This document shows, in pieces, positions 6,693 to 19,709 of a stretch of 34,415 nucleotides of DNA; position 1 is the first letter of the stretch, and each line of letters opens with the position of its first letter. A program made the position numbers and the translations under genes. The DNA is from a virus (taxonomy: Duplodnaviria > Heunggongvirae > Uroviricota > Caudoviricetes): the IMG/VR virus record IMGVR_UViG_2740892426_000006. The stretch is one strand, 5' to 3'. The notes under the pieces were generated by a model that ran no database searches, had not been told where the DNA came from, and saw only the letters and a list, made by a program, of their open reading frames with translations.

Positions 6693-7027
6693 ACAGTTTA
6701 ACAACACACTACCGTCGCTCGCAACTGATTGCGCTTCCTGTACCGGGTGGAAAAGCGAAGGTGGAGTATTGCTATGCAGTAAATGTACCAGGTGGCAGGG
6801 TAATTGTAACCCACAGCTTTGCAGAGTGGGCTGTGGGTGATTTTAACCGGCAAAAGGAGACAGTCCTTTGCGACAAGTTAACCGCTGGTTCAAAGATCAC
6901 TACGGAGTACCCGTCAGAGTCATTCGTTGGGAGCCGGAAACACAACGGGTTATCTACCTCCGCGAAGGCTATGAGCATGAATGCTTCAGTCCGCTCGAAC
7001 AGTTTCGTCGTAAATTCAGGGAAATAG
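6689..7027 (+). CDS. hypothetical protein, 112 aa
   Basis: ATGA start/stop overlap with the preceding gene; ends 10 nt before the O-like start. Overlapping ORFs exist in two other frames, so this call is weak. Confidence 0.3.
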
Positions 7028-14642: not shown

Positions 14643-15073
14643 GATAAAAAAGCCCGCGCTGGGAGGCACGGGCGGCAAGGAATAAAACGTGAAGAAATTT
14701 TCACAGGCGCATAATAATCCGATGTTGCCAGATTTTGCAACTGCATCATCTGGTTATTATGTGAGCTGGAAAATCAGATTCTGTATGGACTGAAGCCATG
14801 CTGTTATTTAGGGCCAAAGAGCTGGCTTTTTCCCGCCTTCTCTCCAGTAACGATTAATGAGAAAAGAATGAAATGCTTTTCCTGGGGAGGAGGGCAGTAG
14901 AAAAAAGAACCCGCCAGCAAAAATATGGGGGATGAACAGCTTTTGCTACTCAGGTTGCTGGCGGGTATGGTTCTTCATGAAATAAGAATGTTACGCGGTA
15001 TTTTTAATGAAAATGATAATTATTGTCAATTGGTTGTGCGTATTTTTTCATACATGACTGGTAAAGGTGATTC

Positions 15074-15106
15074 AGGCCATCAGAGTTTTGCTGATGGCCT
15101 TTTTTC
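15074..15106 (+). terminator. rho-independent terminator just upstream of the holin (second tR'-like element)
   Basis: 10-bp stem aggccatcag/ctgatggcct with loop agttttg, then ttttt. Confidence 0.55.
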
Positions 15107-15138
15107 TTTCCGGTAGCACAGGTCTGTTGGGGCGGGAT

Positions 15139-15354
15139 ATGTATCAGATGGAAAAAATATCAACAGGCATTGCCTACGGCACCTCCGCAGGCAGTGCTGG
15201 CTACTGGTTTTTACAATGGCTTGATCAGGTTAGTCCGTCTCAGTGGGCTGCGATTGGTGTACTGGGAAGTCTGGTTCTGGGCTTTCTGACTTATCTGACG
15301 AATCTGTACTTCAAAATCAGAGAAGACAGAAGAAAGGCTGCGAGAGGAGAGTAA
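15139..15354 (+). CDS. S: phage 21-type class II holin (pinholin) with dual-start motif
   Basis: 71 aa [71 protein letters not shown]; Met1 and Met4 mirror the S21-71/S21-68 dual starts; two TM segments. Confidence 0.8.
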
Positions 15355-16046: not shown

Positions 16047-16580
16047 ATGAACGCAAAAATCAGATACAGCCTGTCGGCTACTGTACTAGTGCTGATTGGT
16101 GCAGGCGCGTCTGCTCCTCAAATACTTGACCAGTTTCTGGACGAAAAAGAAGGTAACCACACAACGGCATACCGTGATGGTTCCGGCATCTGGACCATCT
16201 GTCGGGGTGCCACGATGGTGGATGGAAAACCCGTTTTTCCCGGTATGAAACTGTCGAAGGAAAAATGCGACCAGGTTAACGCCATTGAACGTGATAAGGC
16301 GCTGGCATGGGTGGAACGTAATATTAAAGTACCACTGACCGAACCACAAAAAGCGGGTATCGCGTCATTTTGCCCCTATAACATTGGCCCCGGTAAGTGT
16401 TTCCCGTCGACGTTTTATAAGCGGCTTAATGCCGGTGATCGTAAAGGTGCCTGTGAGTCGATTCGCTGGTGGATTAAGGACGGTGGGCGTGATTGCCGCA
16501 CTCGTTCAAATAACTGCTACGGACAGGTTATTCGTCGTGACCAGGAAAGCGCATTAGCCTGTTGGGGGATAGATCAGTGA
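16047..16580 (+). CDS. R: SAR endolysin (T4-lysozyme-like muramidase with N-terminal signal-anchor-release segment)
   Basis: 177 aa; N-terminal hydrophobic Gly/Ala-rich segment [15 protein letters not shown]; E..D..T catalytic spacing in [16 protein letters not shown]. Confidence 0.8.
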
Positions 16581-16668
16581 GAAGAGTAGCCGCGATTATC
16601 TCCGCTCTGGTTATCTGCATCATCGTCTGCCTGTCTTGGGCTGTTAATCATTACCGTGATAACGCCAT

Positions 16669-16747
16669 TACCTACAAAGCCCTGCGCGACAAAAATGCCA
16701 GAGAACTATACCTACAAAGCCCTGCGCGACAAAAATGCCAGAGAACT
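16669..16747. repeat. 39-bp perfect tandem duplication with 1-nt spacer inside Rz
   Basis: tacctacaaagccctgcgcgacaaaaatgccagagaact occurs at 16669-16707 and 16709-16747, separated by a single a. Confidence 0.9.
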
Positions 16748-16836
16748 GAAGCTGGCGAACGCGGCAATTACTGACATGCAGATGCGTCAGCGTGATGTTG
16801 CTGCGCTCGATGCAAAATACACGAAGGAGTTAGCTG

Positions 16837-17019
16837 ATGCGAAAGCTGAAAATGATGCTTTGCGTGATGATGTTGCCGCTGGTCGTCGTCGGTTGCACAT
16901 CAAAGCAGTCTGTCAGTCAGTGCGTGAAGCCACCACCGCCTCCGGCGTGGATAATGCAGCCTCCCCCCGACTGGCAGACACCGCTGAACGGGATTATTTC
17001 ACCCTCAGAGAGAGGCTGA
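16837..17019 (+). CDS. Rz1: Rz1 o-spanin lipoprotein, embedded in the +1 frame of Rz
   Basis: 60 aa with lipobox LVVVGC and a PPPPP tract; near-identical to lambda Rz1 from memory. Confidence 0.85.
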
Positions 17020-17109
17020 TCACTATGCAAAAACAACTGGAAGGAACCCAGAAGTATATTAATGAGCAGTGCAGATAGAGTTGCTCATATCGATGGGCAA
17101 CTCATGCAA

Positions 17110-17403
17110 TTATTTTGAGCAATACACCCGCGCTTCCTGCGGAGTATAAATGCCAAAAGTGATGAAACCGAGCAATCCATTTACGAATGTTTGCTGGGTT
17201 TCTGTTTTAACCACATTTTCTGCACCACCACAAATTTTTGCTGCATCGACAGTTTTCTTCTGCCCAATTCCCGAAACGAAGAAATGATGGGTGATGGTTT
17301 CCTTTGGTGTTACTGCTGTAGGTTTGTTTCCAACAGTAAACGTCTGTTGAGCACATCCTGTAATAAGCATTGCCAGAGCGGCAGAAAACAACATTTTTTT
17401 CAT
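17110..17403 (-). CDS. bor: Bor lipoprotein (serum-resistance protein)
   Basis: 97 aa from MKKML with lipobox LITGC; near-identical to lambda Bor from memory. Confidence 0.85.
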   Translation of the reverse strand: MKKMLFSAALAMLITGCAQQTFTVGNKPTAVTPKETITHHFFVSGIGQKKTVDAAKICGGAENVVKTETQQTFVNGLLGFITFGIYTPQEARVYCSK

Positions 17404-17883
17404 CTTATTATCCTGCATTGTTAAAAACGGCAGAATCCTATGTGACAACAATTAAACGATAGTTAAATGGATTGATGAAAATTAAAACTACACAGGTGAG
17501 CTCAGACGATTGGAGGGAGTTGGGGACACTCAGAATCCTGTGGAATGAAATAAACCGGTCTATCCGTCCATTACCCTTTTAGCTGCGCTGTATCGTCGCC
17601 GTATTCCCGCATTAACCATGACCGTAGCCCGACGGGGAATTCCTTCTGCGTGAGTGTGCGGGAATAATTAAAAACGATGCACACCGGGTTTTTACCGCGT
17701 TAATGATTCGCGGATTTATCCCGGTGCGATGGTGGAAGAAACCGGAAGCTGTATTACAGAAAGTGCTACTACTGTATCCCGATGCGATGTATGTAATGTG
17801 AGTCAGATAATGGCACAGGATGTGGTGATGTGGCAGTCTGGAACACAGGATATATTGTCAGAATAAGACCCGTAGGAATAAAA

Positions 17884-18210
17884 ATGAAAAGACGCCTTTT
17901 ACTACTTTTTCTGTTATCTGTCCTAGCAGTGGGATGCTCGCAGCAAAAAGCTGATGAGCCCCGGCAATTAGTGACGGTGTATCCACGATATCCGGAATAT
18001 GCTGCAGCAAATTATATCAAGGGGCTGGTTGAGGTTAAGTTCGATATTGGTGCTGATGGGACTGTGACACGGATCGTTTTTCTCCGCTCAGAGCCTCATA
18101 ATTTGTTTCGTGATGAAGTGGTGAAGGCCATGGCGAAATGGCGATTTGAAAAGAATCGTCCCTGTCAGGGAGTGAAGAGACAATTTATCTTTACGCCGTC
18201 ACGTCCCTGA
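17884..18210 (+). CDS. lipoprotein with TonB C-terminal-like domain
   Basis: Signal peptide with lipobox LAVGC; the segment YPEYAAANYIKGLVEVKFDIGADGTVTRIVFL...AMAKWRF fits a TonB C-terminal fold pattern. Confidence 0.55.
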   Translation: MKRRLLLLFLLSVLAVGCSQQKADEPRQLVTVYPRYPEYAAANYIKGLVEVKFDIGADGTVTRIVFLRSEPHNLFRDEVVKAMAKWRFEKNRPCQGVKRQFIFTPSRP

Positions 18211-18332
18211 TGCTTCCAGGTAGAGAGGGGCTGGAAGCAGGAGAAAAATGAAAGAGCCAGCGGTTATATTTTTGTCATGGCTGACGAGGAATGATGGAAG
18301 AAGGCGTTGTATGCCACACAACGCCTCACTGT

Positions 18333-18512
18333 TCATTTCTTCTTTTTCTCTAGTGGAACCCGATGAATAAGAGTTGCACTGGTTTCCGATGAGATGGCGA
18401 TATACTCGGGCAAAGTATGCTGGCAGTTTTCCAACTGGTCAAAAATACCTGCTCTCGTCTGTTGCAATGCCTGCAGCATGCGGCGGCAATGCGCCTTGCT
18501 TTTGCTAACCAT
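18333..18512 (-). CDS. small hypothetical protein, 59 aa
   Basis: ATG preceded by GAGGAAGG; the longer track ORF upstream is P/S/H-rich low complexity. Confidence 0.3.
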   Translation of the reverse strand: MVSKSKAHCRRMLQALQQTRAGIFDQLENCQHTLPEYIAISSETSATLIHRVPLEKKKK

Positions 18513-18573
18513 CTTTCCTTCCTCTATCAGTCGCTGCGTGAACTCATCATGGAATACCAAGTAAATGCGGATG

Positions 18574-18825
18574 TTATCGGTTTTGGCTACGCAGCATAGT
18601 ACAAAACGGACAGGTGCATCCCGGGACGGGGGAGGCGTCACATGTCCCTGTGATGGTTGTTCCGGGTAATGCACTGTGTGGGGCATAAAAATGTCCGATA
18701 ATTTTACTTTCTACCGCAGTTAGTTGATTCGTTGGTCCTGGTAGCACATTGGGCGAGGATTTAAATGCCAGGCAACTGAAGGATGATGTTGCAAGGGAGA
18801 TAGCGAGAATATTTCTGATTTTCAT
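18574..18825 (-). CDS. small secreted cysteine-rich protein, 83 aa
   Basis: N-terminal signal peptide MKIRNILAISLATSSFSCLA; mature part ends in CDASPVPGCTCPFC. Confidence 0.4.
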   Translation of the reverse strand: MKIRNILAISLATSSFSCLAFKSSPNVLPGPTNQLTAVESKIIGHFYAPHSALPGTTITGTCDASPVPGCTCPFCTMLRSQNR

Positions 18826-18974
18826 TTGATGATGCCTCTGTGTGAAATGACGGTAAACGACGCACTTGTGCCGGCACATAATAGCAAGCACCATAATAGA
18901 TCAGATTCGATTCTTGCTGTAAGTGATAATTATTCTCGTTTTTCGGGTCCTTTCCGGCGATCCAACAGGCTACG

Positions 18975-19163
18975 GGGCGGCGACCTCGCGGGTTTTCGCT
19001 ATTTATGAAAATTTTCCGGTTTAAGGCGTTTCCGTTCTTCTTCGTCGTAACTTAATGTTTCTATTTAAAATACCCCCTGAAAAGAAAGGAAACGACAGGT
19101 GCTGAAAACGAACTTTTGGGCCTTTGTCGTTTCCTTTCTCTGTTTTTGGCCGTGGAATGAACA
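18975..19163. other. cos: cos site: cosN cohesive-end sequence GGGCGGCGACCT (18975-18986) followed by cosB
   Basis: Matches the lambda left-end sequence GGGCGGCGACCTCGCGGGTTTTCGCTATTTATGAAAATTTTCCGG... as I recall it; directly upstream of Nu1. Confidence 0.85.
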
Positions 19164-19683
19164 ATGGAAGTCAACAAAAAGCAGCTGGCTGACATTTTCG
19201 GTGCGAGTATCCGTACCATTCAGAACTGGCAGGAACAGGGAATGCCCGTTCTGCGAGGCGGTGGCAAGGGTAATGAGGTGCTTTATGACTCTGCCGCCGT
19301 TATAAAATGGTATGCCGAAAGGGATGCTGAAATTGAGAACGAAAAGCTGCGCCGGGAGGTTGAAGAACTGCGCCAGGCCAGCGAGGCAGATCTCCAGCCA
19401 GGGACTATTGAGTACGAACGCCATCGACTTACGCGTGCGCAGGCCGACGCACAGGAACTGAAGAATGCCAGAGACTCAGCTGAAGTGGTGGAAACCGCAT
19501 TCTGTACTTTCGTGCTGTCGCGGATCGCAGGTGAAATTGCCAGTATTCTCGACGGGATCCCCCTGTCGGTGCAGCGGCGTTTTCCGGAACTGGAAAACCG
19601 ACATGTTGATTTCCTGAAACGGGATATCATCAAAGCCATGAACAAAGCAGCCGCGCTGGATGAACTGATACCGGGGTTGCTGA

Positions 19684-19709
<26 letters not shown>
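19164..19709 (+). CDS. Nu1: terminase small subunit
   Basis: 181 aa starting MEVNKKQLADIFGASIRTIQNWQEQGMPV; lambda Nu1-like. Confidence 0.95.

Follow-up and report, generated by a model that had tools for sequence, protein, structure and literature searches.

A predicted exported four-cysteine protein encoded beside cos in a phage 21-like prophage, and its possible role in metal starvation

The virus record IMGVR_UViG_2740892426_000006, whose 34,415 nucleotides are here called the window, is a lambdoid prophage of E. coli that resembles phage 21. Just inside its cos region, and oriented leftward against the late operon, lies an open reading frame of 83 codons (ORF83), a genuine protein-coding gene whose product carries a Sec-type export signal and four invariant cysteines near its C-terminus. 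Relatives of the gene on enterobacterial chromosomes stand behind Zur-type operators and beside genes for metal transport in several lineages; the prophage copy itself lies behind a Fur-type box. We suggest that ORF83 is a metal-starvation-induced periplasmic protein, probably metal-binding, carried by the phage as a moron. The biochemical part of this proposal is deduced from motif and context, and we put the chance that the proposal is right at slightly below even.

ORF83 is a conserved gene overlooked by annotation

The minus-strand frame that contains ORF83 runs from 18574 to 18894 and would encode 106 residues from its first ATG, at 18894. The conserved start lies further in, at the ATG of 18825, for a product of 83 residues; we place it there because every homologue begins at the methionine and lysine (MK) of this form, and because AGAGG stands 9 nt upstream. 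In a homologue of 72% identity from another E. coli prophage (locus L007) the AGG is retained at identical spacing to the ATG. The product reads MKIRNILAISLATSSFSCLA/FKSS...GTCDASPVPGCTCPFCTMLRSQNR, the slash marking the predicted cleavage site. The preliminary description of this DNA had noted the 83-residue frame with its signal peptide, four cysteines in the C-terminal mature part, proximity to cos and, on the same strand, a 59-residue frame (ORF59) with a strong Shine-Dalgarno sequence. Each of these observations stands, the start of ORF83 being 120 bp from cosQ; cosQ and the cohesive end were located by aligning the region to phage 21, lambda and DLP12.

A search of 5.8 billion proteins returned 22 relatives, with identity down to 55%. 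Homologues of about 83 residues and 55-77% identity occur in Salmonella (salamae, arizonae, diarizonae and indica), Klebsiella, Citrobacter and other E. coli prophages, and a search of one genome per species added a Buttiauxella homologue; in Serratia, Enterobacter and others identity falls to 25%, for an overall family range of 25-77%. A profile built from the family gave 30 hits at E<=1e-3 among 1.84 billion cluster representatives, most of them about 80-85 residues long, alongside fused or frameshifted versions and three long proteins with repeats; the named sources are Enterobacter, Klebsiella, Salmonella and Serratia, and every hit is labelled "hypothetical protein". The family was seen here in Enterobacterales only. 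A degenerate DNA motif corresponding to a narrower form of the protein signature described below ([ASTP] after the first Cys, F or Y only before the last Cys) matched 41 metagenome stretches, all 41 of which encode family members.

Codon alignments of seven sequences from five genera (ORF83 against six homologues) gave 0.11-0.31 for the proportion of non-synonymous differences (pN) and 0.47-0.89 for that of synonymous differences (pS), with dN/dS of 0.10-0.24 where dS is unsaturated, synonymous sites being otherwise at saturation; most differences fall in the third codon position (24/10/49 by position, for example). ORF83 is intact in 73/73 viral-contig loci of IMG/VR. Of the 5426 complete genomes of E. 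coli, 1223 (about 22%) carry it, that of CFT073 included. Among 50,697 phage records it appears in seven, the phage 21 copy lying at 42535-42783; the same seven are found among the 88 records that match the queried region, most of which match its cos-proximal part only. ORF83 is a genuine gene, given these homologues, the low dN/dS and the intact copies. Database variants from E. coli (P0003, P0006 and P0027) have ORF83 frameshifted into an overlapping 117-residue frame or fused with ORF59 (161 residues); they represent sequencing errors or occasional pseudogenisation, and none is found among the 73 IMG/VR loci.

Searches with hidden Markov models (HMMs), proposed in the preliminary description, matched ORF83 to no family in Pfam, NCBIfam, PHROGs or PADLOC, and a profile search of PDB sequences found none. 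Homology to a known lambda right-end ORF, also raised there, was looked for and not found; the leftward ORF of lambda is an unrelated DUF3950/YlcI-like protein. In two E. coli RefSeq records inspected, the Prokaryotic Genome Annotation Pipeline (PGAP) does not call ORF83; in the stretch holding ORF83 and ORF59, the curated phage 21 record has two plus-strand ORFs and the PhiR47_2 record a 117-residue minus-strand ORF. We found no paper that names the protein, its family, the four-cysteine (Cys4) signature or the apparent transfer from Zur to Fur control, and a 2026 preprint on the K. pneumoniae Zur regulon does not mention the homologue in its main text. ORF83 is real and widespread, has no characterised relative, and is to be compared with two known kinds of element, the lambdoid moron and the Zur- or Fur-linked periplasmic protein.

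Export signal and cysteine signature

The anatomy of the protein was read from an alignment of 28 diverse family members. By rule-based reading, the ORF83 leader has a basic n-region (K2, R4), a hydrophobic core of 15 residues and an A-x-A-type site, C-L-A/F. The pair A20-F21 is invariant in 28/28 sequences; position -3 is C, A, S or V and position -1 is always A. From its leader, then, ORF83 is predicted to be exported by Sec and processed by signal peptidase I (SPase I). Processing as a lipoprotein by signal peptidase II, with S-F-S-C18 as lipobox, was considered and rejected: C18 is confined to the close clade; in the wider family A, V, S or some other residue stands in its place, and A20-F21 is unchanged.

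The cysteines C62, C70, C72 and C75 are invariant in the alignment, and M1, K2, G60, P66, G69, L78 and R79 nearly so. Residues 60-79 form the signature G-x-C-x3-P-x2-G-C-x-C-[PAS]-[FYWL]-C-x2-L-R, in which the cysteines are spaced C-x7-C-x-C-x2-C; the mature protein, of some 63 residues, also holds a weakly conserved segment, E-x2-I-x3-FY-x2-H. The C-x-C-P-x-C spacing is typical of metal knuckles and metallothionein-like sites. A repeat strikingly like the C-terminal signature, minus its first Cys, occurs in P0045 and P0047, low-complexity, eukaryote-looking proteins of about 610-630 residues with four to five tandem copies of P-[IL]-P-G-C-N-C-P-K-C-T-x-L-R-N; no Pfam domain covers the repeat.

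The same cysteines allow a different activity. ORF83 might be a small periplasmic thiol-disulfide redox protein that uses C-P-F-C, a CxxC motif at the start of a helix, and is needed when metal starvation perturbs folding in the envelope. The spacing recalls the CPHC and CPYC active sites of Dsb and Grx proteins, and of the only two helices that AlphaFold2 predicts, both short and of low confidence (32-47 and 73-82), the second starts within C72-P-F-C75. With about 63 residues the mature protein is, however, too short to form a thioredoxin fold; the residue that follows the first Cys of the CxxC varies (P, A or S), conservation extends to all four cysteines instead of the CxxC pair alone, and HMM searches of Pfam and NCBIfam gave no similarity to redox families. 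We consider a redox role very unlikely.

Still less credence can be given to the suggestion, made in the preliminary description, that ORF83 is a secreted toxin, bacteriocin or signalling peptide, perhaps with an activity like that of heat-stable enterotoxin (ST). The enterotoxins STa, STb and EAST1 are small, Sec-exported, disulfide-rich and borne by mobile elements, and ORF83 resembles them in being small, exported by prediction, cysteine-rich and prophage-borne, and in its presence in the pathogenic E. coli strains CFT073, IHE3034 and APEC O78 (avian pathogenic E. coli). STa has six cysteines, CCxxCCxxxCxxC, and STb the pattern C-x10-C-x14-C-x11-C. ORF83 differs from these and from EAST1 in the number and spacing of its cysteines, and the loose likeness in spacing first remarked on is not supported; its mature part is much longer than STa, and no HMM of an ST, STb, toxin or bacteriocin family, Pfam included, matched it at E<=1. 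No ORF for immunity, export or maturation is evident beside it, though of its neighbours only the gene for a lipoprotein with a TonB C-terminal domain (TonB_C) was searched, and homologue loci with precomputed domains contain no Pfam family for any of these functions. Unlike the enterotoxins, moreover, ORF83 has core-chromosomal homologues in non-pathogens, and those of soil and plant Serratia and of Klebsiella adjoin housekeeping loci for zinc or other metals. A class II microcin or bacteriocin was rejected on its leader, which is of the Sec/SPase I and not the double-glycine type, and on its neighbours: ORF59, the TonB_C lipoprotein gene, bor and cos.

Relatives of ORF83 lie behind Zur operators

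We scanned the 300 nt upstream of each family gene for operators and compared the matches with shuffled sequences. The gamma-proteobacterial Zur box is GAAATGTTATAnTATAACATTTC (PMC4219657, PMC2706843), and a gene was assigned to the Zur regulon when a box AATGTTATAnTATAACATT overlapped its core promoter. Perfect TGTTATnnnATAACA boxes (12/12) were found in Buttiauxella (a palindrome at -36 from the ATG), on the K. pneumoniae chromosome (a palindrome at -107) and upstream of P0041-type genes (AATGTTATTTTATAACATT at -91, a 17/18 match to the Zur-type box). The P0042-type gene has an 11/12 match at -71; all Serratia variants share a conserved 10/12 match at -42; and in Citrobacter a 10/12 match at -36 fills the predicted spacer between -35 and -10. 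In both S. arizonae and S. diarizonae, pliG (its product matches PDB 4dy3, E 8e-58) is preceded at 35 nt by a perfect box, TGTTATAGTATAACA, and the ORF83 relative follows 94 nt after pliG on the same strand. Relatives in seven lineages thus carry perfect or near-perfect Zur operators. On inspection by hand the boxes extend into plausible -10 or spacer regions, and Zur sites over the -10 have been demonstrated experimentally in Yersinia pestis (PMC2706843). In K. pneumoniae the sole other Zur box within 10 kb precedes the adjacent azt metal operon, of the ATP-binding cassette (ABC) type, and serves as an internal control. We predict that the chromosomal members of the family are Zur-regulon genes. 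The window copy, whose best Zur match is 8/12, falls outside the regulon as defined here.

Genes for metal transport or homeostasis recur beside the relatives. The K. pneumoniae copy adjoins aztDCBA, identified by PDB matches of AztD (6cmk, E 3e-282) and AztC (5w56, E 2e-115), in an island that also holds paralogues of dihydroorotase (pyrC2) and porphobilinogen synthase (hemB2); such paralogues are a gene class of other Zur regulons. The P0042-type copy adjoins an azt-like arrangement, judged from ORF starts only, of a periplasmic protein of about 435 residues, a ZnuA-like solute-binding protein, a permease and an ATPase. The Enterobacter copy begins 62 nt past the gene for a Cd/Zn-type P1B ATPase, the Serratia copy is divergent from a TIGR04028 (NikA/CntA-like) ABC importer with its solute-binding protein, and the Citrobacter copy adjoins fecIRA. 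The K. variicola-type copy and that of the Salmonella integrative and conjugative element (ICE) type have mobile-element contexts and no operator. The window contains no azt genes.

About 64 conjugative plasmids of Klebsiella also carry a homologue, without annotation in the listed records. In NZ_CP024459.1 (about 6800-7000) it lies in a zinc island with zigA, a second COG0523 GTPase gene and a Fur-family repressor gene. Directly upstream are a decayed lambdoid cos and a decayed Fur box (a 10/14 Fur-like match only), and by this arrangement the plasmid copy is a transplanted fragment of a prophage right end.

The company of pliG supports an alternative in which metal plays no part, and this is the main rival to our proposal. 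ORF83 would be a disulfide-stabilised protection factor of the periplasm or envelope, for example an inhibitor, like PliG, of an enzyme of the host or of a competitor, or a modulator of outer-membrane receptors, and its co-regulation with starvation genes would be explained by starvation acting as a signal of the host environment. PliG, a g-type lysozyme inhibitor, is likewise small, Sec-exported and Zur-linked, and a Salmonella PliG is also prophage-encoded (Gifsy-1; PDB 4dy5); experiments in E. coli have established pliG as a target of Zur (PMC4219657). Four invariant cysteines in an oxidising compartment would suit two structural disulfides. The window gene, too, lies among envelope-protection morons (bor/iss and the TonB_C lipoprotein gene), and some lineages of the family have no metal context. 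Set against this, adjacency to metal transporters recurs in independent lineages (azt, one case confirmed and one apparent, the P1B ATPase and the NikA/CntA-like importer), the cysteine spacing resembles that of metal sites, and ORF83 has no similarity to known inhibitor families in Pfam, NCBIfam, PHROGs or the PDB; PliG itself has no Cys4 motif and no sequence similarity to ORF83. We judge a protection factor unlikely, but a good deal less so than the redox protein or the toxin.

The Salmonella loci of pliG deserve a separate remark. Between 3450 and 6200, S. diarizonae and S. arizonae have in turn the Zur box, pliG, the ORF83 homologue, a bor-like lipoprotein gene and an omptin protease gene, a cluster that looks like an islet for envelope defence and nutritional immunity and is probably a prophage remnant.

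A Fur-type box belongs to the cos block

Upstream of ORF83 in the window stands TGATAATTATTCTCG, a 12/14 match (p=0.003 in the scan with shuffles) to the 7-1-7 consensus used for scoring, TGATAATnATTATCA; the Fur box is given in the literature as AATGATAATnATTATCATT (PMC4219657, PMC2706843). At the same place the L007 prophage has a perfect box, TGATAATAATTATCA, and perfect 7-1-7 boxes lie 6 nt to the left of cosQ in lambda (TGATAATCATTATCA, in the last ~60 nt of NC_001416) and in DLP12 of K-12 (TGATAATTATTATCA, at about 2630-2650 of the locus). Alignment shows the window box to be the positional homologue of all three. Homology among lambda, DLP12, L007 and the window stops directly to the left of the box, and the leftward genes beyond it vary: a DUF3950/YlcI-type ORF in lambda and DLP12, an ORF83 homologue and then DUF3950 in L007, ORF83 and then ORF59 in the window. 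The Fur box, on this comparison, is part of a conserved cos block behind which varied leftward cargo has been placed. Fur control of ORF83 in the window is plausible because the cos-block box carries such cargo behind it.

Fur sites upstream of nohA and nohB in K-12 have been known since 2000-2007: that of nohB (DLP12) is a strong prediction, with 25.3 bits, and that of nohA (Qin) has 22.3 bits and is confirmed by gel shift, no physiological role being given (PMC2189734). These sites may be cos-adjacent boxes of the kind described here, and their real target may be the leftward gene. Behind the lambda box that gene is a 64-residue DUF3950/YlcI-like ORF (MSTKNRTRR...) that has no annotation in NC_001416.

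A promoter for ORF83 was harder to place. A scan with consensus promoters found only a site overlapping the start codon; the 72% homologue does not conserve the candidates picked by hand, for example an extended -10, TGCTATTAT, and we claim no promoter. An Rfam scan of 16500-19300 gave nothing credible.

A tentative role in metal starvation

If these elements are put together, the following course of events can be envisaged. The ORF83 precursor would be exported by Sec and cut by SPase I after A20, releasing into the periplasm a protein of about 63 residues with the C-terminal Cys4 module G-x-C-x7-C-x-C-P-x-C-x2-L-R. A single branch of the family would have been taken up by lambdoid phages, as a leftward moron just inside cosQ, behind the Fur operator, and the lysogen would express its prophage copy during a shortage of metal (iron). 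The Cys4 site, possibly together with the conserved E39 and H50, would bind a thiophilic metal, Zn(II) or another, in the periplasm, and the metal would be buffered there or handed to uptake systems, which may help the lysogen under the nutritional immunity of its host.

The comparison with known elements fits such a course in part. The orientation of ORF83 opposite to the late operon, a terminator-like hairpin and its patchy presence (the 7/88 records) are features of a moron. It occupies the slot between lysis cassette and cos that holds the known lambdoid right-end morons (bor/iss, and the DUF3950 genes of ylcI/ynfO type in lambda, DLP12 and Qin); like them it is read leftward, opposite to the late operon, has a hairpin as its boundary and is found in some but not all phages that share cos, and like the lambdoid cos-adjacent ORFs it lies directly behind the same Fur operator. 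Unlike Bor, YlcI and the lambda ORFs, to which it has no sequence relationship, it encodes a predicted exported Cys4 protein with chromosomal, Zur-linked relatives. Zinc proteins of the Zur regulon such as ZinT and AztD, the latter the metallochaperone of AztABCD (PMC6689063), are periplasmic, as ORF83 is predicted to be, and ORF83 homologues are likewise Zur-boxed; in one lineage the homologue adjoins aztDCBA, and in a second it adjoins an operon with that layout. ZinT and AztD have about 200-400 residues, however, against about 63 for mature ORF83, with no sequence similarity; the candidate ligands of ORF83, in a metal site that is itself a prediction, are cysteines and not histidines; and the box of the window copy is of the Fur type, not the Zur type of the ZinT/AztD regulon.

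A bolder version of the proposal holds that ORF83 founds a new family of very small periplasmic Cys4 metal-handling proteins, which would act as miniature zinc chaperones or buffers together with ZnuABC, AztABCD or other importers, and that phages have rewired the gene from Zur to the Fur operator beside cos. About one fifth of E. coli strains, including CFT073 and lineages of extraintestinal (ExPEC) and avian pathogenic E. coli, would then carry a phage-delivered aid against nutritional immunity. We regard this version as doubtful.

Several observations weigh against a metal-starvation role. All members of the family are hypothetical proteins known from sequence alone. AlphaFold2, run with 12 and then with 28 sequences, gave a predicted local distance difference test (pLDDT) of 48 and 59 and no confident fold. 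In the periplasm DsbA normally oxidises cysteines, and two structural disulfides would on that account be more likely than Zn(Cys)4. One half-site of the window Fur box is degenerate; the box is present whatever the cargo and is therefore not selected for ORF83 specifically; and no convincing conserved -35/-10 could be placed for ORF83 relative to it. No qualifying operator occurs within 300 nt of the K. variicola-type, Salmonella ICE-type, Enterobacter and Klebsiella plasmid copies. The plasmid's zinc island is not counted as an independent case of metal-gene adjacency and may be accidental, because the decayed cos flanks the gene. Nor is Zur control proof of metal handling, PliG being Zur-regulated and yet a lysozyme inhibitor (PMC4219657).

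Were the metal-starvation role correct, a missing small component of enterobacterial zinc acquisition would have been identified, one that adjoins aztABCD in Klebsiella and is left uncalled by PGAP in two E. coli RefSeq records. Phages would then be seen to transfer a metal-starvation gene from the Zur to the Fur regulon by setting it behind the conserved operator of the cos block, and the right ends of phage 21 and lambda would gain a functional reading. This 83-residue gene, with its copies in CFT073 and about 22% of complete E. coli genomes, would also offer a cheap and concrete test case.

The local map, ORF59 and neighbouring genes

Between 18200 and 19160 the window matches E. coli chromosomes at 100% identity, and phage 21, ev017, Perceval and three PhiR phages at 98-99%; the right end of phage 21 maps by alignment to 18974. 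The features of the region are collected in the table.

Table. Features between the lysis genes and the terminase genes of the window
Feature	Position	Strand	Remarks
Rz/Rz1	16656-17078
bor/iss serum-resistance lipoprotein gene	17110-17403	-	RefSeq "increased serum survival lipoprotein Iss" at the equivalent position; lysogenic-conversion region
TonB_C lipoprotein gene	17884-18210	+	Pfam TonB_C 7e-13, TIGR01352; RefSeq "TonB family protein"; convergent moron outside the ORF83 unit
Hairpin, bidirectional terminator-like	18302-18326		Between convergent units; closes the ORF83-ORF59 unit; from RNA folding
ORF59, with stop	18333-18512	-	Possible second cistron; phrog_4843 match
Shine-Dalgarno region AGAGGAAGGAAAG	18513-18525	-	Strong; precedes ORF59; read from sequence
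ORF83 coding sequence, with stop	18574-18825	-	83-residue precursor of a predicted exported four-cysteine protein; predicted mature form 63 residues from F21
C-terminal Cys4 signature, residues 60-79	18589-18648	-	Invariant or near-invariant columns of the 28-sequence alignment
Signal peptide MKIRNILAISLATSSFSCLA, residues 1-20	18766-18825	-	SPase I cut predicted after A20
Shine-Dalgarno sequence AGAGG	18835-18839	-	Upstream of the ORF83 ATG
Fur-type operator TGATAATTATTCTCG	18924-18938		12/14; 6 nt from cosQ; 99-113 nt upstream of the ORF83 ATG
cosQ GGGTCCT	18945-18951	+	Phage 21 annotation carried over by alignment
cosN cohesive-end sequence GGGCGGCGACCT	18975-18986	+	Alignment with phage 21 and lambda ends
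Nu1	19164-19709		Followed by the large terminase gene

ORF59 had been put forward as a companion gene of ORF83. The two do share a terminator-bounded unit: RNA folding shows no structure between them (z +0.5), and the hairpin that follows ORF59 and faces the convergent TonB_C gene has a folding energy of -18.8 kcal/mol (z -3.5) on the minus strand and -21.8 kcal/mol (z -3.3) on the plus strand. The ORF83 transcript probably includes ORF59, translated or not, because there is no terminator between the ORFs and a hairpin after the second. Coding is another matter, and no evolutionary evidence for it was obtained. We think it an even chance that ORF59 is no gene at all and forms the 3' untranslated region of the transcript that carries ORF83, in which case both annotations of the stretch, ORF59 itself (WP_021525754.1 in RefSeq, phrog_4843, of unknown function, in PHROGs) and an antisense ORF (WP_000881608.1), would be gene-caller artefacts. 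The homologues of ORF59 are all near-identical and confined to the phage 21-type module, a module assigned to E. coli by the phage records (in the ORF59 cluster one source name is Klebsiella, and one RefSeq entry is labelled Enterobacteriaceae); a tblastn search of phages with the extended frame returned the same seven phage 21-type records only. In divergent loci DUF3950 or bor takes its place downstream of ORF83. Apart from phrog_4843 it has no match in Pfam, NCBIfam, the PDB or the defence systems of PADLOC, and similarity to the YlcI-type protein of lambda and DLP12 was sought and rejected. The 73 IMG/VR contigs that have ORF83 are also those that have ORF59, which is disrupted in 3/73 loci; its nine single-nucleotide polymorphisms fall 3/3/3 by codon position, two synonymous and seven non-synonymous, and give no sign of selection beyond chance, at a divergence of 1-2% that leaves the test little power. 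In favour of a gene are that same low power, its integrity in 70/73 loci and a very strong Shine-Dalgarno sequence, AGAGGAAGGAAAG, at ideal spacing.

In the two RefSeq records inspected, PGAP calls neither ORF83 nor ORF59 but a 60-residue plus-strand ORF at 18417-18599 (WP_000881608.1/WP_000881610.1), antisense to ORF59. A premature stop or truncation affects this ORF in 24/73 loci, and it is very probably spurious. The pipeline thus calls an ORF that is truncated in one third of copies and misses the conserved ORF83 beside it, an annotation error that should be flagged.

Two further observations concern the neighbourhood. The product of 17884-18210 has 108 residues, with a lipobox, LAVGC, and a TonB C-terminal domain alone; it might disturb TonB-dependent uptake of phages and colicins or TonB-dependent receptors, and its place in phrog_1267, "Rz-like spanin", looks like a mis-annotation. 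A second Fur-like box, TGATAATTATTGTCA, a 13/14 match, lies at 15014-15028, about 40-100 nt upstream of a holin-like ORF (15067-15354), where the late promoter would be expected.

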